Shown one piece after another: positions 3,363-58,815 of a DNA stretch of 64,000 nt (position 1 is its first letter; every line of letters starts with the position of its first letter). The stretch lies in contig JBBTUJ010000005.1 in the NCBI GenBank assembly GCA_038063815.1, positions 4,875 to 68,874 of the forward strand, in the 5' to 3' direction. This DNA comes from Patescibacteria group bacterium. Lineage in GTDB: Bacteria; Patescibacteriota; Minisyncoccia; Phycocordibacterales; EsbW-18. A program made the position numbers and the translations under genes. The notes below the pieces were generated by a model. It saw only the letters and a list, made by a program, of their open reading frames with translations. It did no database searches and was not told where the DNA came from.

Positions 3363-4697
3363 TCAGAGAATGTCGTGTACGCTAAATCCTCCTTGCGCCC
3401 TGATACGCGACACGTAGCCAGTGATTGCGAGAATGAGGAGGAGTGGAGTGATGGGTACCAAAAAACCATTCGCAAGCGATATCGAATCGAAACTTGAGAG
3501 TGTTGCTGTTGAGATGATCGCAACGAAGATGTATACCGTCAGAAGGAATACAAGGAGAGAGAACCCGCGAATCCGTAGCCGGATACATGTCACAAGCGCT
3601 CCAACCAAAACCGCAAGGTGTAGTATGGTGAGCAGAATCTTAACAATAAAAATATTTCGTTCTTTTGGTGAGAAATCTGCAATCCCCTGCTGTCCTCTTA
3701 GAATCTCAACACCACGTTCTTTGTACGAGAATGTCGCGCCACTATCGAGCGTGTGAAGCCCGACAGGAAATGAGAACACCCTCACAAAACCTTCCCGGAA
3801 CATCGGCTCACCGATAGCAAAAAGCGAGCGCGTTGTCTTCCGTATGCTCTCGGGCCTAAGATAGTTCTGCTCACCTTTTGCGATAACAGGCGCAACTGAA
3901 AAATCTTCGTACAGGAATATATTCCTGTATGTCCACGGCAGGATAACGAGAGCGACAGCGGAGCACATGATCGCAACAATCACCACACGTTTTCCTATTC
4001 TCTCCCGCTTTTCTTTTTCACGAACACCATCGACGAGAGCCCACAGGGCGAACACAATAGGCAAGAAAAGGGCGATAACATCAGTAAGCGCGCCGAGACC
4101 GAGAAGGATGCCGCAGACGAGTGCTCGCCAGACACTTTCTTCTTTGAGTGCCCGGATAAAAAAGAAGACCGCGGCCGTAAATACAACGGCATACAAGAGA
4201 GCCGAACTTCCGTGCCGTATCTGAAAGAGGAACGATGGCCACACCGCTGCAAGAAGCGCCACAATCCAAGGGATCCTACCACTTGCCACTTCTTTTGCGA
4301 TCGCATAGATAAGAAGTACGAACACGATGTGGAGCAGTATCTGCGAGATTGCGAGCGCTGTTCCGCTTGACCCGATCGTTAGGTAGATGAACGCGAGGTA
4401 CAAGGGCCAACCCGGAGCGTTCCGACCGAACTCGTGCAGAACAAAATCTCCATCAAGGATATGGTGTGCTGCGGCATCGTAGAGCGGAAAATCTTGATTC
4501 AATCGCAGATCATCTACCCGAGGAACCATGACGCACGTCGCAACAACGCACGCGAGAAGAAGAGCGAGGAGAAGCGCCCGATGATCTCTATACCAATGAT
4601 TCGTACGGTCCATACAAATATGAGCGTGACAGATGTATATGATACACTCGACCGATATATGCAGCCAGACATATCTCGCATCGTCGATGCCCATCAC
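3363..4697 (-). CDS. polytopic membrane glycosyltransferase, GT-C fold (PMT/ArnT-like, GT39/GT83-type), putative
   Basis: 444 aa, multiple hydrophobic helices, N-terminal DDARY motif resembling the loop-1 DE motif of PMT/ArnT enzymes. Start uncertain: the GTG/ATG at 4697 would overlap the divergent gene, and MDRTNHW at 4613 is an alternative. Confidence 0.4.
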   Translation of the reverse strand: MMGIDDARYVWLHISVECIIYICHAHICMDRTNHWYRDHRALLLALLLACVVATCVMVPRVDDLRLNQDFPLYDAAAHHILDGDFVLHEFGRNAPGWPLYLAFIYLTIGSSGTALAISQILLHIVFVLLIYAIAKEVASGRIPWIVALLAAVWPSFLFQIRHGSSALLYAVVFTAAVFFFIRALKEESVWRALVCGILLGLGALTDVIALFLPIVFALWALVDGVREKEKRERIGKRVVIVAIMCSAVALVILPWTYRNIFLYEDFSVAPVIAKGEQNYLRPESIRKTTRSLFAIGEPMFREGFVRVFSFPVGLHTLDSGATFSYKERGVEILRGQQGIADFSPKERNIFIVKILLTILHLAVLVGALVTCIRLRIRGFSLLVFLLTVYIFVAIISTATLSSFDSISLANGFLVPITPLLLILAITGYVSRIRAQGGFSVHDIL

Positions 4698-10842: not shown

Positions 10843-11880
10843 CTACGATATCACACGCTCGATAACGCGCTTCAGGTCTTCCGCGATCTTCTCGGGAGTC
10901 CCGCGTGACATAAAAAGTTCGTATCCACCACCACCAATCCGCTTTGCAAGACCTGAGTCGTCGCGGAGAGAAAGTACCGCACGCGCAAGGTCATTCGAAT
11001 CTCCTGGAATACAGAGAAGAACGTTCTGCCCATCCTGTGCAATCTCTTCTATCGCCTCAGTACGTGCGGTAACAACAGGCTTCCGACATGCCCACGCCTC
11101 ATACACTTTGTTGGGAATAACGAGATGTATTTTGTGAGTCGTCCCGGCAATACCGATCGATACATCCGCTCGATTGATATATTCACGAAGATCTTCGTAC
11201 AGAACATCATCATGAAAAGATACCTCTGGATATTCCTTCTCATACATCCGCTTTATGCTTGTGCCAACAACTGAGATCTGTATCCCCTGTGCTGAAAGCA
11301 TCTTCCCCGCAGCAAGTACGGTAGGAACACCATGAAGCGGAATGTTCGTTCCGTGAAAGTGGACCGTGAAAGGGTGTGGCGACGAGGAATCATTTGCATC
11401 CGGATAAAAAACCGACGGATCGGATCCGACAAGAATGCGATGACTCCGTTCTGGGTCACACCCGAATTTGTTCACAAAAAAGTCGCGGTGGGCGAATGTG
11501 TCAAAAAGATATGCGTGCGCAAGGTGACATGAGAGAAGATCGAGGAGATAGTAGTATGCCGCGTGCAGACCTACACGTGAGTATTTCTGTCGGTCATCAA
11601 CAAGCGTCATGTGTAAAGAGAAAAACGGATCAAAAATAATCTTCTTTGACGATATAAGTCGCGCTAGTATGAGTGCCTGCTGTCCCGGAAACGCAACGAA
11701 CATGATGTCGTACCTGCCACGAATCTGAGCGTGCTTCCGAATGAGGTCTCTGTATTTTCCTACTCCCTTTTTGTTTGTTCTGCATTCGACAACTGTGTGC
11801 CCGCTTAACTCAAATGCACGCTTGAGGATGCGGTTCCTGGGGTAGGTGGGATCATAAATCCCAAAAAAACATATCTTCAT
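10843..11880 (-). CDS. GT-B fold glycosyltransferase (GT1/GT4-like)
   Basis: 345 aa with a GT-B pattern. It overlaps the upstream GT4 gene by 4 nt. Confidence 0.6.
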   Translation of the reverse strand: MKICFFGIYDPTYPRNRILKRAFELSGHTVVECRTNKKGVGKYRDLIRKHAQIRGRYDIMFVAFPGQQALILARLISSKKIIFDPFFSLHMTLVDDRQKYSRVGLHAAYYYLLDLLSCHLAHAYLFDTFAHRDFFVNKFGCDPERSHRILVGSDPSVFYPDANDSSSPHPFTVHFHGTNIPLHGVPTVLAAGKMLSAQGIQISVVGTSIKRMYEKEYPEVSFHDDVLYEDLREYINRADVSIGIAGTTHKIHLVIPNKVYEAWACRKPVVTARTEAIEEIAQDGQNVLLCIPGDSNDLARAVLSLRDDSGLAKRIGGGGYELFMSRGTPEKIAEDLKRVIERVIS

Positions 11881-24849: not shown

Positions 24850-25975
24850 CTCGTTTTAGGTGTGCTGGTATATGTACAAGGATTTCGTACGGAATTGTTC
24901 CGGACGCAACTGCTATCTTTGAGGCGCTATTCCCCGCCTTTGGATCGGCACTTATGACTTCCGCAGAATCTCCCTCTTTCACGTTGGGAATATCCGTCAC
25001 ATCAACCGTCGTCATGTTCATCGAAACGCGGCCGACAATTGGGCACTCGCGATCATTAACGCGTATAACACCCTTGTTTGAGAGTTGACGGCTGATTCCT
25101 TCAAAGTATCCGGCGGGGATTGTTGCTACCTTTGTTTCGCGAGTTGCGGTCCACGTGTTGTTATACCCGACCGATTCTCCGGCAGAAATTGTCCGGAGGG
25201 CAGTAATAGATGTACGAAGAGAAAGCGCGGGCTTGAGATCCTGCACTTCATTTGCAGGATCAATACCGTAAAGTCCCATACCGAGACGAAGGAGATTTGC
25301 ATCGATTTCCTGAATGTATTTAGTTGCCGCCGTCAGAGCGAGATGGTACCAGCGTGTGTCAGGAATCTTTTCTTTCCATATTTTGACGATTCCATTCCAT
25401 GTCTCGATTTGCTTTCGAGTGAATGTTGGATCAGTACCGTCGGCGTCGGAAAGGTGCGAACAAACGCCCTCAATACGGATTTGTGGATTTGCTGTCAAAA
25501 GATGTATTGTTTCAGAAATCTCATCGGGCATAATTCCCTGCCGATGCATTCCTGTATCGATTTTTATATGAAGCGGCGGCGTTTTTTTCTTTTGCTGTGT
25601 AAGTTCTTTAAGTTGTGAAAGTGTTGCAACGGCAAACGCAACATCTTTAAAAGAATTCTCAAGGATCGTTTTTGTCAGCGTGTGTCCGAGCACCAGAAGA
25701 GGCATTGTGATGCCCTCCGTTCTCAAAACACGCGCTTCGAAGTATGAATCAATAGCGAAAAAAGGGATGTCCTTGTTGTCCTGAAGAATCCGAGCCACAG
25801 TGAGAAGCCCGTGCCCGTAGGCGTTTGATTTGAGAACGGGCGCGACCCTCCACGACCCAGCTTTCTTTTTGAAAAGAGAGAGGTTGTGGAGAATATTGCT
25901 TCGCGAGACACAAACAGTAATGAGCGTCTGCGGCGTCGACTTTCTATCGCGAAGTTTTTGAAAAAACGATTTCAT
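24836..25975 (-). CDS. alr: alanine racemase
   Basis: PLP-site APVLKSNAYGHG, 379 aa with an Alr-like pattern throughout. Confidence 0.85.
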   Translation of the reverse strand: MKSFFQKLRDRKSTPQTLITVCVSRSNILHNLSLFKKKAGSWRVAPVLKSNAYGHGLLTVARILQDNKDIPFFAIDSYFEARVLRTEGITMPLLVLGHTLTKTILENSFKDVAFAVATLSQLKELTQQKKKTPPLHIKIDTGMHRQGIMPDEISETIHLLTANPQIRIEGVCSHLSDADGTDPTFTRKQIETWNGIVKIWKEKIPDTRWYHLALTAATKYIQEIDANLLRLGMGLYGIDPANEVQDLKPALSLRTSITALRTISAGESVGYNNTWTATRETKVATIPAGYFEGISRQLSNKGVIRVNDRECPIVGRVSMNMTTVDVTDIPNVKEGDSAEVISADPKAGNSASKIAVASGTIPYEILVHIPAHLKRVTEK

Positions 25976-25983
25976 GCTGTTGT

Positions 25984-26046
25984 GGGCGCGGAGGGACTCG
26001 GACCCTCAAGGATTGCTCCATACGCTCCTGAAGCTAGCGCGCCCAG
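25984..26046 (-). other. tRNA-like fragment (acceptor stem + T-arm only, no D-arm and no proper anticodon arm)
   Basis: Minus RNA reads GGGCGCG...GAGGG-TCCGAGT-CCCTC-CGCGCCC-A. A 7 bp acceptor and 5 bp T-stem pair perfectly, but only 30 nt lie between them and the T-loop has C at position 54. Confidence 0.3.
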
Positions 26047-26058
26047 CACTAAACTCTG

Positions 26059-26142
26059 TGCCGCGGGGGAGACTCGAACTCCCATTCCCTTACGAGAACT
26101 ACGACCTGAACGTAGCGCGTCTACCAATTTCGCCACCGCGGC
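26059..26142 (-). tRNA. tRNA-Leu (anticodon CAG), type II with long variable arm
   Basis: GCCGCGG-TG-GCG-AAATTGGTAGA-CGC-G-CTACG-TTCAGGT-CGTAG-(long var)-GGGAG-TTCGAGT-CTCCC-CGCGGC-A. CCA is not encoded. Confidence 0.85.
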
Positions 26143-26175
26143 AGTTTAGTGCTGGGTAAATCTACCAATTTTTAT

Positions 26176-26234
26176 CCCGTCACTAACGTTGGCATTCTAC
26201 GCGTGCTTTCGCACAATGCCAATGTTAGTGCGGG
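26176..26234. repeat. GC-rich palindromic hairpin element, homologous to the stem of the 16S V2 insertion
   Basis: CCCGTCACTAACGTTGGCATT...AATGCCAATGTTAGTGCGGG is a 20 bp stem with one bulge and one G.U pair. Compare 28512-28533 and 28625-28646. Confidence 0.6.
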
Positions 26235-26269
26235 ACCGCCACGCGCCCAAAACTGACCGAGATATAACT

Positions 26270-26345
26270 GGTGCGCGTGGTAGGACTCGAACCTACGGCC
26301 TCGTCATTATCAGTGACGTGCTCTAACCAGCTGAGCTACACGCGC
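26270..26345 (-). tRNA. tRNA-Ile (anticodon GAT), CCA encoded
   Basis: GCGCGTG-TA-GCTC-AGCTGGTTA-GAGC-A-CGTCA-CTGATAA-TGACG-AGGCC-GTAGG-TTCGAGT-CCTAC-CACGCGC-ACCA. Confidence 0.9.
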
Positions 26346-26398
26346 AAGTGAGGATGACACATGATGTCTTTCGTGCGAGAGCGGAGTCATCGAGGTAA

Positions 26399-26432
26399 GA
26401 GCAAAAAGGAAAGCTCGCTTTCATTTTTGCTC
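26399..26432. terminator. A/T-flanked palindromic hairpin (bidirectional terminator-like) between the small ORF and tRNA-Ile
   Basis: GAGCAAAAAGGAAAGCTCGCTTTCATTTTTGCTC, with 9 bp outer arms plus an inner GAAAG/CTTTC stem. Confidence 0.4.
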
Positions 26433-26593
26433 GACACCGAGATGATGTGAGCTCGAGCCCTCTACACCATGTGGTCCGAATGCCGCGCTTGTATGTATTC
26501 ATACACGCGAAAACGTATATATGCATACCCACGCAAGCAAGAGGCACTATACCAAAAAACCTATGTGTACTCAATGAAATGTGAAACCGCCAC

Positions 26594-26818
26594 CTACAAC
26601 TGGTGTAGGCGGCGGTGCTGCTCGTTCCCCCAGCGCAGAATCGCGCTGAGGAGAACGACGGCCAGGATGTAGATGAGCGCCGTGGCGCACATCACGAGCG
26701 CCTGACCAGCGCTCATCGTCGGCGTCGCCCCATGGAGCGGCGCCGACAAGTTTCCCAGAGCGTGGATGAACACCGACACTCCGGGGACTGAAAATCTGAT
26801 GACAAAACTGCTGATCAT
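26594..26818 (-). CDS. small hydrophobic protein (75 aa) with its own promoter, SD and terminators
   Basis: MISSFVIRFSVPGVSVFIHALGNLSAPLHGATPTMSAGQALVMCATALIYILAVVLLSAILRWGNEQHRRLHQL. Preceded by TTGACT-N16-TATAAT, then AGGAGGTG 6 nt before the ATG. About 62% GC. The ORF track's 115 aa version extends upstream through the promoter. Confidence 0.5.
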   Translation of the reverse strand: MISSFVIRFSVPGVSVFIHALGNLSAPLHGATPTMSAGQALVMCATALIYILAVVLLSAILRWGNEQHRRLHQL

Positions 26819-26837
26819 TGGCCACCTCCTGAGAAGC

Positions 26838-26865
26838 ATTATACCAGCACGTTTGTAAAAGTCAA
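26838..26865 (-). promoter_or_regulatory. sigma70-like promoter TTGACT-N16-TATAAT driving the small ORF
   Basis: Minus-strand sense reads TTGACTTTTACAAACGTGCTGGTATAATGC, followed by SD AGGAGGTG (26823-26830) and the ATG at 26818. Confidence 0.55.
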
Positions 26866-26881
26866 TACCCTGTGGGTAAGC

Positions 26882-26910
26882 AAAAACGGCCTTAGTTAGG
26901 GCCGTTTTTG
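26882..26910. terminator. bidirectional intrinsic terminator (A5-ACGGCC-loop-GGCCGT-T5)
   Basis: AAAAACGGCCTTAGTTAGGGCCGTTTTTG. It lies between the 16S 3' flank and the small-ORF promoter. Confidence 0.55.
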
Positions 26911-27257
26911 CGCTTTGCCATCCTCGCGGATGACCATACATGTGTCTTTTCTTTTGTTCCGTTCATACCGGTCTTTCCCGGCTTGTCCGATTGCTTTAAG
27001 GATATTCAATCATAATCCATCACGTACTCAATTGAGGTACATGATATCGACCGCCTTGATCAAGTATTCAAAAACTGAACACTCGACGATTTGTCATTGG
27101 ACAAAATCCACGAGCAGCTTCCGCTACCCGTGCCTTGTTACGCCTTAACCCTAGTCACCGAACTTGCCTTAGAACATGAGAACCATGTGCTTCGGGCATT
27201 CCCGGCTCCTTTGACTTGGCGGGCGGTGAGTACAAGGCTCGAGAACGTATTCACCGT

Positions 27258-27289
<32 letters not shown>

Positions 27290-27452
27290 ACTTCATGAGG
27301 TCGAGTTGCAGACCTCAATCCGAACTGAGGATGGCTTTCTAAGGATTGGCTCGGGATTACTCCGTCGCGACCTGTTGTACCACCCATTGTATCACGTGTG
27401 TAGCCCGAGGCATCAGAGGGACATGCTGACTTGGCGTCATCCCCGCCTTCCT

Positions 27453-27594
27453 CCCAGCACGAAGCGTACGATGTACGCTTCAAGTTAAAAGTTTGTAAAG
27501 TTATAAAGTTTATAAAGTATTTTTTGTATTCACTTTACGAACTTGATGAACTTTTTACTTTCTACTTGAAGCGCTTCACGCGCTTTGTGCTGGG
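27453..27594. repeat. 16S V7 (h40-loop) insertion containing a copy of the AT-rich dispersed repeat, flanked by GC palindromes
   Basis: CCCAGCAC...GTGCTGGG closes the stem. Inside lie GAAGCGTACGATGTACGCTTC and GAAGCGCTTC hairpins plus the AAGTTATAAAGTTTATAAAGT...GATGAACTTTTTACTTT repeat. Confidence 0.6.
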
Positions 27595-28511
27595 CGGTCT
27601 CGTCTGACACTTATAACAGACGATAGGGGTTGCGTTCGTTACCCCACTTAAGGGAACAGCTCAAGCCACGAACTGACGACAGCCATGCATCACCTGTCCA
27701 GCCGCCCGAAGGCTCGTAAAGTTTCCTCTACGATTCGTCTGGATGTCTAGCCTCGGTGAGGTTCTTCGTTTAGCATCGAATTAAACCACATGATCCACCG
27801 CTTGTGCGAGCCCCCGTCTATTCCTTTGAGTTTTAACCTTGCGGTCGTACTACCCAGGCGGATCACTTAACGCGTTAGCTTCGCCTCTCAGAGGGTCGAT
27901 ACTCCGAAAAGCTAGTGATCATCGTTTAGGGCCAGGACTACTGGGGTATCTAATCCCATTCGCTCCCCTGGCTTTCGTGTTTCAGCGTCAGATATATGCT
28001 AGTGTACTGCCTTCGCTTTTGGCGTTCCCCACGATATCAACGGATTTCACCCCTACACCGTGAGTTCCGTACACCCCTCATACTCTCGTAGTTGTACCGT
28101 TTCCCATGCGGATTTCTGGTTAGGCCAGAAGATTTGACACAGGACTAATACAACCGCCTACACACCCTTTACGCCCAATAATTCCGGATAACGCTCGGGG
28201 CTCTCGTATTACCGCTGCTGCTGGCACGAGATTAGCAGCCCCTTATTCATCGGGTACCGTCAAAATTTCTTCCCCGATAAAAGATCTTTACGTCCCGAAG
28301 GACTTCATCAATCACGCGGCGTCGCTCCGTCACACTTTCGTGCATTGCGGAAGGTTCTTGACTGCAGCCACCCGTAGGTGTCTGGACAGTGTCTCAGTTC
28401 CAGTGGTGGGGGTCAGGCTCTCACCTCCCCTACGCGTCATAGCCTTGGTAAGCCATTACCTTACCAACTAGCTGATACGAGGCAGGCCGTTCTAGAAGCG
28501 ATAAATCTTTA

Positions 28512-28646
28512 CCCGCACACTAACTTTGGCATTGTCTTCAGTACGCCGAGATCATTGTCACATTATCTGTGATAACTATTCGGGAATAACGATAATAAAC
28601 CTTCCACACAACTGCCTTCGGCGTAATGCCAAAGTTAGTGTGCGGG
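28512..28646. repeat. 16S V2 insertion forming a 22 bp perfect stem (CCCGCACACTAACTTTGGCATT / AATGCCAAAGTTAGTGTGCGGG), with a partial third copy at 28664-28690
   Basis: A perfect 22 bp inverted repeat encloses 91 nt, with an inner ACGCCGA/TCGGCGT extension. It is absent from E. coli-type V2. Confidence 0.65.
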
Positions 28647-29042
28647 TTTACTCCGATTTGAAGACCATTACAAAGTTAGTGAGCGGGACCATCAGGTATT
28701 AGCCCATCTTTCGATGAGTTATTCCTGACTTCTAGGTACGTTCCCACCCGTTACTACCCCGTTTGCCGGTTGCCCTTGCGGGCCCCCTTGACTTGCATGC
28801 CTTAACCACGCCGCCAGCGTTCATCCTGAGCTAGGATCAAACTCTACATAAGAATCACAAATTGCTTTGTGATTTTTCTGAACGGAACAAAAGAAACAAC
28901 ACATGTATATCGTTCTTTGTTCTTTTTTTCCAGCACGTAGCTCATGCGTGCCGGACTTAGATACTTTACTTGTTTAGGAATAGACGAGTACTCCCAACAC
29001 TTATTCGAGTGCTGGAAAATCTTGTACTCTCTACTTATTTTA

Positions 29043-29343
29043 TCCAGCACTTAACTTTGCTCTGTCATGGTGAGAAACAATGGTGTATCTCTACCTTATA
29101 CAGAATAAAAGCGGCGCACTCTACTTTGGTGCAACAACTAATTTGCGACAAAGAATTTTTGACCACAATGCAGGTCGTTCTCTTGCCACACAGGGCTCAG
29201 AGTGGCAACTCGTATATTACGAGGCGTTTCGCGCAGAGAAAGATGCTCGTGACCGTGAACATCAAATAAAGTTTCACGGTCAAGCGAAACGACGACTTAA
29301 ACAACGGCTCAAAAATTCTTTAGAGCAAAGTTAAGTGCTGGAT
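29043..29343 (+). mobile_element. putative mini mobile cassette: GIY-YIG gene bounded by perfect 21 bp terminal inverted repeats
   Basis: Left inverted repeat ATCCAGCACTTAACTTTGCTC at 29043-29063. Right inverted repeat GAGCAAAGTTAAGTGCTGGAT at 29323-29343, which contains the gene's stop codon. Confidence 0.4.
29080..29334 (+). CDS. GIY-YIG nuclease family protein (UPF0213/YhbQ-like)
   Basis: VYLYLIQNKSGALYFGATTNLRQRIFDHN...WQLVYYEAF...REHQIK is the GIY-YIG signature. Confidence 0.75.
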   Translation: MVYLYLIQNKSGALYFGATTNLRQRIFDHNAGRSLATQGSEWQLVYYEAFRAEKDARDREHQIKFHGQAKRRLKQRLKNSLEQS

Positions 29344-29493
29344 GAATTGTCAAAGTCCATCAAAAACCCCACCTCAGCCAGTCACGGCCGAAATGGGGTG
29401 ACTAGTTGAATGGACCTCCATTATATTCATAGAAAGGATTGTGTCAAGTTTCAGTGAATCCCTTGCAAACGCCTTTATCTCGCCCTTTTCACT

Positions 29494-31776
29494 ATGCGCT
29501 ACAATACCCCCATGCAGCTCAACGACCCGCTTATAAAAATACTTCGCCTTACCGAGGCACAGAAGAAGGCGCTCAAAAAACTGCATCTCACGAGTGTGTC
29601 AGATGTGCTCTATCACTTCCCCGCTCGATACGTCTCATCAACGGGCGATGGTGTTATTCAAACAACTGCTCCGGGTGACATGGCTTCTGTTGTGGGAGTT
29701 ATTTCAAAAACAAAAGCACGCAAGGCATGGAAAAGCCGTATTCCTATGACCGAAGCAACACTCAAAGATGCGTCAGGAAGCTTGCATCTTTTGTGGCTCC
29801 ACCAGCCATACATCTCAAAAATGTTTCCCGAAGGATCAGCCGTTGTTGTCACAGGAAAAATAAAAGAGAAGGACGGTAAGCGCTCGATGATTAATCCAGA
29901 AATTACACGCGTAAAAACAGGGGGGTTTGGAGGTCCGACCTCCAGGAATTTGGAGGTCGGACCTCCAAATAGAAATAATCTTTTTAATACAACCCCGAAC
30001 TCGGATATACCACTTCTTCCTGTGTACCCCGAGAGTCGCGGTGTCACGTCACGATGGTTCTTCTACACCATTCAAAAGATACTTGCAGACGATGTTGTGA
30101 ACACCGCACACGATCCAATTCCAAAAGACATCTTAAAAAAATATAATCTTCCGGCGCTCGGTACGGCGCTTGTGTGGATGCATGCCCCAAAAAACGAGAC
30201 CGACGCACGTGCCGCACGCAAACGGTTTGCGTTTCAAGAAATCTTTTTTATTCAACTCAAAAAGCAACAAGAGCGACACTTCACCGACTCGCTCCCCACA
30301 TGGGATATCCGACCGTCGCAAGAAAGCATCAACGAGTTTCTTGCAAAGTTTCCCTTTACACCGACAAGTGCCCAATCAAAAGCGCTCACCGATATCTTTA
30401 ATGATTTTGCCGGTACTCGCGCAATGTCACGACTTCTTGAGGGTGATGTTGGTTCGGGTAAAACATTCGTTGCCGCTGCTACCAGTTTCGCTGTGGTTAC
30501 GACGCGTCCGCCAAAGATGGTATCGACAGGTCCTGCGCTTCCCAAAAAATCCGACTTACAAAAACAAGCTGGTCGTGTCGAGGGTAAGCAAGATTTCGGC
30601 AACCTTCAGGTGGCGCTCATGGCCCCTACTGAAATATTGGCAACGCAGCATTTTGAATCGTTTATCGAGCTCTATCGCGGATTGCCGATCAATGTGGCAC
30701 TCATCACTTCATCGGGATGCAAAAAGTTCCCGTCCAAAGTCAATCCCAATTCATGGACCGACATCTCACGCGCACAACTTTTGAAATGGGTGGCAAATGG
30801 TGAGATACCTATCCTCATTGGCACACACGCACTCATTCAAAAAACGGTGGAGTTTAAACATCTGGCGTATGTGATCATTGATGAACAGCACAGGTTTGGA
30901 ACAAAACAGCGCATGACCTTGGCGCGCAAAGACGAAAAGATTCCTCACTTGCTTTCGATGACTGCAACACCGATCCCTCGCACACTCGCGCTCACTATAT
31001 ATGGCGACCTCGATCTCACCCTGCTCGATGTGATGCCTCCCGGGCGCAAACCGATTGTTACAAAAATCGCCACACCACGCGAGCGAAAGGCGGTGTATGA
31101 ACACATCCGTACCGAAGTACAGAGTGGCAGACAAGCGTACATTATTTGCCCACGTATTGACGCGCCCGATGAAAACGACGAAATGGCACTTCAGGCAAAA
31201 TCGGTTGAGGAAGAAACTAAGCACCTTTCGCGCGACGTGTTCCCGGAATTCCGTATTGCATCGCTCCATGGCAAGATGCTTTCGAGCAAAAAAGAAAGCG
31301 TGATGGCCGACTTTGTGTCGGGGGCAATCAACATTCTCGTAGCAACGTCTGTGGTTGAGGTGGGTGTCAATGTTCCCAATGCAACTATCATTATTATCGA
31401 GGGTGCCGAGCGCTTTGGCCTTTCGCAACTTCACCAAATCCGCGGGCGCGTCTTGCGAAGCACGCACCAAGCGCACTGCTATCTCTTTACTGAATCGAAA
31501 TCGCAATCAACGCTCGACCGTCTCAAAGTGCTTGCCGAGGCCGCCAACGGGTTCGAGCTCGCCGAGCACGACCTCGCACTCCGCGGCGCGGGTGGTCTTG
31601 TCGGCCACAAACAGTGGGGTGTTTCCGATGTCGGCATGGAAGCGCTTCAAAATATCAAAATGGTTGAAGCAGCGCGAAACGAGGCGAAGGCGCTCGTTTC
31701 GCGCGACCCGGAACTCTCAGGATTTCCTCTTTTACAATCCGCCCTCACCGAGCGTGGCGAGGTGCATTTTGAGTAA
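29494..31776 (+). CDS. recG: ATP-dependent DNA helicase RecG
   Basis: Walker A LLEGDVGSGKT, DEQH box VIIDEQHRFG, MTATPIPRTL and QLHQIRGRVLR. 760 aa. Confidence 0.9.
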   Translation: MRYNTPMQLNDPLIKILRLTEAQKKALKKLHLTSVSDVLYHFPARYVSSTGDGVIQTTAPGDMASVVGVISKTKARKAWKSRIPMTEATLKDASGSLHLLWLHQPYISKMFPEGSAVVVTGKIKEKDGKRSMINPEITRVKTGGFGGPTSRNLEVGPPNRNNLFNTTPNSDIPLLPVYPESRGVTSRWFFYTIQKILADDVVNTAHDPIPKDILKKYNLPALGTALVWMHAPKNETDARAARKRFAFQEIFFIQLKKQQERHFTDSLPTWDIRPSQESINEFLAKFPFTPTSAQSKALTDIFNDFAGTRAMSRLLEGDVGSGKTFVAAATSFAVVTTRPPKMVSTGPALPKKSDLQKQAGRVEGKQDFGNLQVALMAPTEILATQHFESFIELYRGLPINVALITSSGCKKFPSKVNPNSWTDISRAQLLKWVANGEIPILIGTHALIQKTVEFKHLAYVIIDEQHRFGTKQRMTLARKDEKIPHLLSMTATPIPRTLALTIYGDLDLTLLDVMPPGRKPIVTKIATPRERKAVYEHIRTEVQSGRQAYIICPRIDAPDENDEMALQAKSVEEETKHLSRDVFPEFRIASLHGKMLSSKKESVMADFVSGAINILVATSVVEVGVNVPNATIIIIEGAERFGLSQLHQIRGRVLRSTHQAHCYLFTESKSQSTLDRLKVLAEAANGFELAEHDLALRGAGGLVGHKQWGVSDVGMEALQNIKMVEAARNEAKALVSRDPELSGFPLLQSALTERGEVHFE
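29926..29970. repeat. 45 bp structured palindrome in-frame inside recG
   Basis: TTTGGAGGTCCGACCTCC-aggaattt-GGAGGTCGGACCTCCAAA. Two 18 bp arms, each itself a near-palindrome, encode GGFGGPTSRNLEVGPPN. Confidence 0.6.
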
Positions 31777-39578: not shown

Positions 39579-39686
39579 ATAGTTCGCTTCGCGAAAAAAT
39601 CCAATATCCAGTTATCAAATTCCAAACATTGGGATTTCGATCGTTGGGTAGTGTTTGGATTTTGGAGTTTGGAACTTGGTTATTTT

Positions 39687-58711: not shown

Positions 58712-58815
58712 GTTTTTAAGTTCCAAGTTCCAAAATCCAAATTCCAATCTAGGGTATCATTGTTTGGAGTTTAGTTAGTGTTTGGTATTTGGTAGTTGGA
58801 TTTTGGATTTTATTC

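Follow-up and report, generated by a model that had tools for sequence, protein, structure and literature searches.

The rRNA genes of the Candidate Phyla Radiation (CPR) are full of insertions, of which only the class comprising introns and homing endonucleases has been explained so far (PMC11270868). Tsurumaki et al. (2024) left uncharacterized the many short insertions that are neither introns nor carriers of open reading frames (ORFs), suggesting that they are perhaps intervening sequences for RNase III, and reported that all GIY-YIG proteins encoded in CPR rRNA insertions sit in insertions of the non-intron kind (PMC11270868). Here we analyze one such short insertion, a 135-nt hairpin in the variable region V2 of a 16S rRNA gene from a Patescibacteria group bacterium; the gene lies in a 64,000-nt stretch of contig JBBTUJ010000005.1 (assembly GCA_038063815.1, positions 4,875 to 68,874), which in its full length is called the window below. 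An earlier examination of the bare letters (the sequence-only reading) had proposed that the hairpin is either a mobile palindromic element that has invaded the 16S gene or a shared RNase III-type processing module. Our results favor the first possibility: the hairpin is likely a copy of a non-autonomous foldback DNA element, similar to miniature inverted-repeat transposable elements (MITEs) and widespread in Patescibacteria.

Several described systems resemble this element in part. The Correia repeat-enclosed elements, MITEs of Neisseria, are non-autonomous, ~100-155 bp long, and have ~26-bp terminal inverted repeats, a short target duplication and transcripts with long hairpins, which are substrates of RNase III; they duplicate TA, are present hundreds of times in a single genus and share a conserved interior sequence. 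The Rickettsia palindromic elements (RPEs) are palindromic selfish elements of reduced genomes, which insert into functional genes, RNA genes included, without destroying them; they are in frame and are translated as extra peptide segments. The intervening sequences excised from rRNA by RNase III are short, ORF-less and unrelated to introns; they extend the stem of a peripheral helix and are distributed patchily among relatives. Classical examples occur in helices 9, 25 and 45 of the 23S rRNA and are not known as dispersed genomic repeats. The repetitive extragenic palindromic (REP) sequences and their mosaic arrangements (BIME) are likewise hairpin repeats in which structure matters; they are thought to be mobilized in trans by a domesticated nuclease acting on single-stranded DNA (ssDNA) hairpins, the RAYT protein, akin to the Y1 transposases of the IS200/IS605 type. 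Finally, Chenal et al. (2025) described the Ssn enzymes, single-domain GIY-YIG nucleases of ~94 aa, which cleave ssDNA adjacent to hairpin repeats; these repeats flank the nuclease's own gene and are also dispersed in the genome, a layout that the authors regard as insertion-sequence-like (PMC11893778).

In the window, the hairpin announced by the sequence-only reading is present as described: an inverted repeat of 23 nt, 100% complementary, occupies 28511-28533 and 28625-28647 with 91 nt between the arms, and the element itself (Table 1) ends in CCCGCACACTAACTTTGGCATT and its reverse complement. Its computed fold (-57.9 kcal/mol) contains the inner ACGCCGA/TCGGCGT stem as well. The 16S gene is full length, with 1757 nt against the 1533 positions of the bacterial model, relative to which it has two insertions; Infernal leaves a 155-nt insert unaligned at model positions ~188-192, i.e. 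in V2, around helices h9 and h10. The half-copy noticed earlier at 28664-28690 is also real, and we call it the solo arm.

Comparison with the 16S genes of relatives indicates that this DNA was inserted. The closest relative that we retrieved (L001, GCA_025450795.1), whose RecG is 91% identical to that of the window and whose contig ends inside the 16S gene, is 100% identical to the window 16S along 224 nt on one flank of the site and 99.4% identical along 169 nt on the opposite flank, and has 8 nt, with a single TTTA, where the window has 174 nt. Its site has the sequence GAUGGU-CUC-UUCG-GAG-UAAAG-AUUUAUCGC, in which a small tetraloop hairpin (h9) precedes h10. In the window, the hairpin is inserted at this UAAA/TTTA, with TTTA on both sides, and an arm-like segment precedes h9. 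The size of 135 nt given by the sequence-only reading therefore holds for the hairpin and not for the whole of the extra DNA, since the 174 nt (28513-28686) comprise the hairpin, the duplicated TTTA and the segment containing the solo arm. A more distant relative (L003, RecG 68% identical) also has no V2 insertion. On the other hand, the 16S gene of L014 carries an independent copy in the h10 loop, a few nucleotides from the window site, and the metagenome-assembled genome (MAG) that contains L014 has a further copy outside the rRNA, on L028. In the 16S gene of L037, ~80-90% identical to that of the window, a solo arm and a hairpin occupy the same site as in the window; this hairpin shares its first 11 interior bases with ours and measures 80 nt rather than 135. 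The homologous solo arm of L037 is the counterpart of one that is missing from L001, L003 and L014. An ACCAT direct repeat around the window's solo arm was considered as a second target duplication and rejected; it is probably coincidental, because the solo arm of L037 has no such repeat.

The sequence-only reading had also pointed to a related hairpin at 26176-26234, which indeed lies between the tRNA-Ile(GAT) and tRNA-Leu(CAG) genes and has an identical copy on a 1.2-kb groundwater contig (L044). The 16-nt core CACTAACNTTGGCATT occurs five times in the window against 0.56 expected (~9-fold), a number that none of 100 shuffled sequences reached, and fuzzy searches with the arms, allowing up to 4 substitutions as well as indels, found no further copies in the window. 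A scan of one genome per GTDB species with the pattern CCCGN{0,2}CACTAACNTTGGCATT returned 26 loci, 13 of them from Patescibacteria (Saccharibacteria, Zambryskibacteria, Nomurabacteria, Doudnabacteria, Parcubacteria, Paceibacterota and unclassified members), and in 12 of these 13 the match is an arm of a window-type hairpin; a scan of metagenomes added 37 loci, many from CPR-rich groundwater. With orthologous sites collapsed, the loci amount to ~24 independent insertions. The hairpin-forming copies from these scans come from Patescibacteria only, of several classes. The matches in other bacteria (Acinetobacter, with one conserved locus, Chloroflexia and Marinicella) have no partner arm and fit the handful expected by chance; they were treated as such, as were the partnerless matches of Doudnabacteria (L021/L042, inside a 473-aa ORF) and of the viral contigs L055, L067 and L068. 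Rfam contains no family, introns included, that matches the hairpins at gathering thresholds or at E <= 1, the hits of mir-16 to the L023 copy and of MIR7993 to the insertion that we labelled B being spurious hairpin matches. The searched literature contains no paper describing the element, in agreement with the earlier remark that such insertions are not known to have homologues elsewhere than in rRNA.

The copies are 59-138 nt long and contain no ORF. Their arms, with a consensus of ~22 nt (CCCGCACACTAACTTTGGCAT / ATGCCAAAGTTAGTGTGCGGG), were compared in 18 independent copies over a 21-bp stem: 98.1% of the cells are paired and ten positions are invariant. At position 14, 14 copies have U-A, three have A-U and one has G-C, and double-sided changes occur in 6 of the 21 base pairs of the stem, more than in any of 500 shuffles. 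L017b has a largely different yet complementary inner stem behind the same CCCGCACAC terminus. The interiors cannot be aligned between independent copies; their length (~28 or ~90 nt), unlike their sequence, is conserved, and the total lengths (typically ~71 or ~133 nt) fall into two classes, 59-71 and 131-138 nt, with few intermediates of 80-120 nt. Because a near-invariant sequence is combined with compensatory change, which duplex shape alone would not explain, the pattern points to a protein that reads the folded, probably single-stranded arm; the compensatory changes are compatible with a hairpin that is recognized as a single strand.

At 14 of the 24 independent sites, the element is flanked by direct repeats of 4 bp or more, whereas with permuted right flanks the mean is 2.6 sites and no trial out of 10,000 exceeds 8 (P < 1e-4); the repeats seen are TTTA, TAAA, TCAA, CCTG, CAAG, CTTG, CCCA, CACG and one CTTGA. 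MITEs are characterized by terminal inverted repeats, filled and empty sites, small size without coding capacity, and a target duplication of fixed length; the family has all of these, and its 4-bp duplication, often of TTTA, supports the mobile reading, as does the presence of most copies outside rRNA in many Patescibacteria. Compared with the Correia elements, the patescibacterial element has a 4-bp duplication, an apparently low number per genome and an unconserved interior, and its arms are conserved, with compensatory changes, across classes of a phylum-level radiation. Its copies in 16S rRNA genes and at prepilin leader junctions recall the RPEs, with which it has no sequence similarity and from which it differs by clear target duplications and by an arm that replaces a leader peptide. 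In contrast to the intervening sequences, the family occurs mostly outside rRNA and has transposon hallmarks. Finally, the REP sequences have a conserved 5' GTAG and no target duplication, whereas the termini of our element read CCCG..., and neither a RAYT gene in the window nor a Y1 gene in its part syntenic with L001 was found.

Table 1. Coordinates of the probable mobile element, related repeats and neighboring RNA genes in the window (strand "." denotes no assigned strand)
Feature	Position	Strand	Remarks
Probable foldback (MITE-like) element copy in V2, between h9 and h10	28512-28646	.	arms 28512-28533, 28625-28646
Left TTTA copy of the target-site duplication	28508-28511		seen directly in sequence
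Right TTTA copy of the target-site duplication	28647-28650		
Solo arm CATTACAAAGTTAGTGAGCGGG	28666-28687		one mismatch in 17 nt to the element arm
Short 59-nt hairpin of the same family, tRNA-Ile/tRNA-Leu spacer	26176-26234	.	RNA fold z = -4.7
GIY-YIG cassette	29042-29343	plus	ORF 29080-29334 inside a 22-25-bp inverted repeat ATCCAGCACTTAACTTTGCTCT
16S rRNA gene (host of the insertion)	27096-28852	minus	Rfam RF00177, 1362.9 bits, model positions 1-1533
Second 16S insertion, h40 tip	27450-27597		~140 nt, AT-rich long hairpin, base CCCAGCAC/GTGCTGGG
Trailer half of the leader/trailer stem around 16S	26936-26965, partner 28879-28908		30 nt, 93% complementary
tRNA-Ile(GAT)	26269-26345	minus	
tRNA-Leu(CAG)	26058-26142	minus	
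Perfect 14-bp inverted repeat CCCAGCACTAAACT / AGTTTAGTGCTGGG exactly enclosing tRNA-Leu(CAG)	26042-26156		terminus of the sister CCCAGCAC type

In a fuller form of the alternative put forward by the sequence-only reading, the hairpins would be a host RNA-processing module, the stems being kept by selection as sites for RNase III or another endonuclease that separates the tRNAs and removes the V2 insert, in line with the proposal that short non-intron CPR rRNA insertions are intervening sequences cut by RNase III (PMC11270868). This would agree with the location of all family members of the window within 3.3 kb around the 16S, tRNA-Ile and tRNA-Leu genes, with ~6 of 24 independent sites elsewhere (about a quarter) in 16S genes or abutting tRNA genes (copies stand directly against tRNA ends in L010/L036, L052 and L045), and with stems of at least 21 bp that are 98% paired and show compensatory changes. 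However, the majority of copies lie outside stable-RNA transcripts, in pilin genes, in a long ORF, upstream of ORFs and in intergenic DNA, and in either orientation; even within 16S, the copies of the window and of L014 are oriented differently. In the closest relative, the 16S gene does without the insert, the target duplications indicate insertion events, and the 16S gene already has its own leader/trailer stem (Table 1), unrelated in sequence to the element, which we take to be the ordinary pre-16S processing stem of a bacterial rRNA operon. Moreover, RNase III reads duplex shape and needs no near-invariant arm across classes, whereas in our family the sequence of the copies is conserved, and not the structure alone. 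As the primary nature of the family, a processing module is thus unlikely; a secondary role of the transcribed stem as a substrate of RNase III is plausible.

Among the sites outside stable-RNA genes, three have the element at GGN/TTTA/CN (slashes delimit the target), i.e. at Gly/Phe-Thr codons, two of them in prepilin genes and one in a long ORF ending ...EVPFGPFL..., which presumably resembles prepilin peptidase. When the element and one copy of the repeat are removed, L043 reads MLSKFTKYKKG/FTFLETIVAIG... and L020 reads MYSSKRG/FTLIELLVVIAIIG..., both of them intact prepilins, and the reconstructed proteins match PF07963 (the prepilin N-methylation motif) above the cut-off. Read outward, the arm itself contains ATG CCA AAG TTA GTG TGC GGG, i.e. 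MPKLVCG; the arms in L020, L043, L026 and the L007/L063 group encode MPKLV(C/S/R)G, so that after insertion at TTTA the downstream half of the gene starts MPKLVxG/FT.... It is plausible that the heptapeptide encoded by the arm serves as a substitute prepilin leader. Either such a supply of leaders explains the survival of pilin insertions, or the arms derive from the 5' end of a pilin gene. Insertions at the prepilin junction with a leader supplied by the arm would be unusual, as they would imply a mobile element whose make-up preserves the gene that it enters.

The family also appears to be connected with small GIY-YIG nucleases. Upstream of the 16S gene, on the plus strand, the window contains a cassette situated 434 nt from the V2 element, the ORF of which encodes 84 aa with PF01541 as the sole domain and has its stop codon within the right arm; the best solved relative of the protein is UPF0213 BH0048 (1zg2, E = 2.4e-5), and it has no NCBIfam match. 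The arms of the cassette and of the hairpin share the blocks CC[A/C]GCAC and TAACTTTG, and the end of the gene, ...GAG CAA AGT TAA (E-Q-S-stop), aligns with ...TGC CAA AGT TAG in the hairpin arm. In five contexts, GIY-YIG genes are enclosed by inverted repeats starting with YCC[A/G]GCAC. In L069-L072 (3001-3255) and L075 (666-920) a GIY-YIG cassette, 64% identical, with arms TCCAGCACTTAAT..., sits in a diversity-generating retroelement, between the genes for bAvd and the reverse transcriptase, surrounded by direct repeats TAAAG (L069) and TAAA (L075), while the cassette termini are CCCAGCACTTTCT in L073 and TCCGGCACTCG... in L074. The position of the cassette in these retroelements is approximately that where the template repeat would be expected. 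ORF-less hairpins with the CCCAGCAC terminus exist as well (L001 949-1018, L007 6039-6152). Furthermore, GIY-YIG genes are found 20-150 nt from canonical hairpins in L010/L041/L065, L036, L018/L051 and L037; in the last, a GIY-YIG ORF (380-692) lies within V1 (h6) of the 16S gene and is flanked by a 13-bp stem ATGCCACACCTCT/AGAGGTGTGGCAT. L037 also has a GIY-YIG fragment at ~10944-11078, between the 23S and 5S genes.

We propose that the hairpin family derives from such cassettes, in which a single-domain GIY-YIG gene lies within termini (YCC[A/G]GCAC...TAA...) that are related to those of the hairpins without being identical, and that these cassettes may mobilize the hairpins in trans. Other candidates were considered. 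No DDE transposase was identified, the ORFs of the window not having been scanned exhaustively, and a Y1_Tnp gene in L001 was rejected, as it is a faint match in a segment missing from the window. A viral scan for the cassette termini yielded only one contig, L076 from IMG/VR, picked up via CCAGCACTTAA; its ~300-bp perfect palindrome (3477-3778) is most likely a foldback assembly artefact.

The architecture parallels that of the Ssn systems: a gene for a single-domain GIY-YIG protein of ~84-96 aa is bracketed by inverted-repeat or hairpin sequences that are found elsewhere too, in an insertion-sequence-like arrangement comparable to NTS-ssnA-NTS, and the hairpin bases contain CCCGC...GCGGG. 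By this analogy, the hairpin/GIY-YIG system may work like the Ssn system, membership in that family not being claimed. One could go further and regard the hairpins as non-mobile recognition repeats of an Ssn-type ssDNA nuclease (equivalents of NTS or SRM), which modulate recombination or transformation and are spread by recombination. Single-domain GIY-YIG genes do adjoin the copies or lie enclosed by related repeats, the Ssn/NTS precedent combines gene-flanking repeats with a link to transformation, and some of the insertions are in type IV pilus genes, which encode the machinery of DNA uptake. Nonetheless, the filled/empty pair and the clean duplications of 4 bp (14 of 24 sites) speak for a discrete unit that was inserted, the patescibacterial repeats are foldbacks of 59-138 nt or gene-enclosing arms rather than hairpins of 20-50 nt, the solved structure closest to the GIY-YIG protein is that of a UPF0213 member, and the SRM consensus is absent from the window, for which reason we did not file the element as SRM; we consider the non-mobile alternative very unlikely. 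The Ssn paper mentions neither CPR/Patescibacteria nor rRNA, tRNA or pilin genes as targets (PMC11893778). Least likely is a degenerate intron or homing-endonuclease relic with a chance or local duplication in the tRNA spacer, for which one can cite the frequent group I/II introns and homing-endonuclease ORFs of CPR 16S genes (PMC11270868) and the GIY-YIG ORF inside V1 of L037, and which is disfavored by the lack of any intron family match at E <= 1 over 25950-29450, the lack of an ORF in the element, the ~24 independent homologous copies, mostly outside rRNA and with target duplications, and the ~9-fold enrichment of the core motif in the window.

It must be noted that several observations weigh against the interpretation of the hairpins as mobile elements dependent on GIY-YIG nucleases. 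Mobility, and a role of the nuclease in it, are read from sequence. To our knowledge, there is no mechanism by which an Ssn-like enzyme would produce a 4-bp duplication. A clean duplication is missing at 10 of 24 sites, among them the spacer copy of the window, where none is recognizable. The number of copies, 1-3 per locus (two and the solo arm in the 64 kb of the window, two each in L017, L023 and MAG OFTM362), appears unusually low for MITEs. The distribution is patchy, since the distant L037 has the composite insertion and the very close L001 does not, a pattern that would require the V2 segment to have been lost, recombined or laterally transferred, unless the end of the L001 contig is chimeric. 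No cassette or GIY-YIG ORF with canonical CCCGCACACTAAC arms turned up, arm pairs 0.3-3 kb apart not having been searched, and GIY-YIG genes and hairpins could be adjacent simply because both favor the same safe sites. The SRM consensus HGTCWYN(0-2)YYVSBRHN(0-5)WNVSBRGN(0-2)RNCYNB has 0 matches on both strands of the window, where 0.5 would be expected, and the Ssn enzymes cut neither dsDNA nor RNA (PMC11893778).

If the V2 element is transcribed as part of pre-16S rRNA, a perfect duplex of at least 22 bp would protrude from V2. Such a duplex is a textbook substrate of RNase III, and the h9/h10 part of V2 lies at the periphery of the small subunit, in the region where eukaryotes have the expansion segment ES3. 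As in the known intervening sequences, the insertion extends a peripheral helix (h9/h10) into a long duplex, and the element may be removed by RNase III or, about equally likely in our estimate, be retained as an expansion segment. A simple motif scan of the 64-kb window found no RNase III signature, a result that is uninformative for the whole genome. In the RNA sense, the solo arm is a second 5' arm, able to pair with the 3' arm of the element; it also offers an alternative 29-nt pairing, 86% complementary, with 28512-28540. The three arms of V2 can form two mutually exclusive long helices, and the minimum-energy fold of the region (-76.1 kcal/mol, z = -5.4) uses the outer solo arm and not the inner perfect stem.

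Other parts of the window contain further repeats. The h40-tip insertion of the 16S gene (Table 1), missing from the 16S of L014, which has a plain CCC-UCAC-GGG hairpin there, has at its base the sequence with which the sister hairpins and some GIY-YIG cassettes end; it may belong to this sister CCCAGCAC family, an ambiguous assignment, as the stem is perhaps partly native. The inverted repeat around tRNA-Leu(CAG) has TTTA on one flank, and the tRNA gene may be cargo carried by a foldback element like the GIY cassettes; alternatively, the repeat may be a long leader/trailer stem of the tRNA precursor. Downstream of the 16S gene there is no 23S gene, so that the rRNA genes are unlinked; a small hydrophobic ORF (26594-26850, minus strand), with an extended -10-like TGGTATAAT and the ribosome-binding site AGGAGG in front of it, is followed by tRNA-Ile and tRNA-Leu. 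On the other side, beyond the cassette, recG (29494-31776, plus strand), the product of which has its best homologues annotated as Candidatus Campbellbacteria or Paceibacterota, in keeping with a Campbellbacteria-like host, contains a palindrome at 29920-29975 (TTTGGAGGTCCGACCTCCA / TGGAGGTCGGACCTCCAAA) with 19-bp perfect arms, in frame in a linker; it adds ~27 aa (...GGFGGPTSRNLEVGPPNRNN...), is absent from the RecG of L001, and has the appearance of an in-frame insertion akin to the RPEs, its sequence family being a different one.

In the 16S leader of L001 (400-940), between the processing stem and the mature 5' end, there is an ORF of 129 aa that belongs to PF05635 (23S_rRNA_IVP/bAvd-like) and is flanked by long inverted repeats of the GGAGTTGGAAGTTGGAAG type; the window has only a small hairpin in this place (28855-28880). 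Imperfect inverted repeats of TCCAAA/TTGGA units occur elsewhere in the window (39594-39686 and 58729-58811, e.g. TCCAAAATCCAAATTCCAA / TTGGTAGTTGGATTTTGGA); they resemble those around the PF05635 ORF and may represent another repeat family.

The features combined in the patescibacterial family (those of MITEs, of the palindromic elements of reduced genomes, of rRNA intervening sequences and of Ssn repeats) are each already known, and it is their combination that appears to be new. It is tempting to unite them in a single, more speculative scenario, which we consider possible but rather doubtful: that Ssn-related single-domain GIY-YIG nucleases mobilize an unrecognized class of bacterial foldback transposons, which are bounded by inverted repeats and duplicate 4-5 bp of the target, that ORF-less derivatives have colonized sites where insertion can be survived (peripheral rRNA helices, tRNA ends and the Gly/Phe-Thr codons of pilus genes), and that their arms have evolved to encode the replacement leader MPKLVCG, which keeps the pilin gene expressible. 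Neither mobility nor an association with rRNA has been reported so far for the Ssn nucleases. If true, this scenario would explain a share of the uncharacterized short insertions, and of the intron-unrelated GIY-YIG insertions, in CPR rRNA genes. With our analysis, one short 16S insertion is tied to a dispersed, radiation-wide family with the hallmarks of transposons, and to GIY-YIG cassettes; insertions that lengthen V2 in this way affect 16S amplicon surveys and the metagenome assembly of Patescibacteria.

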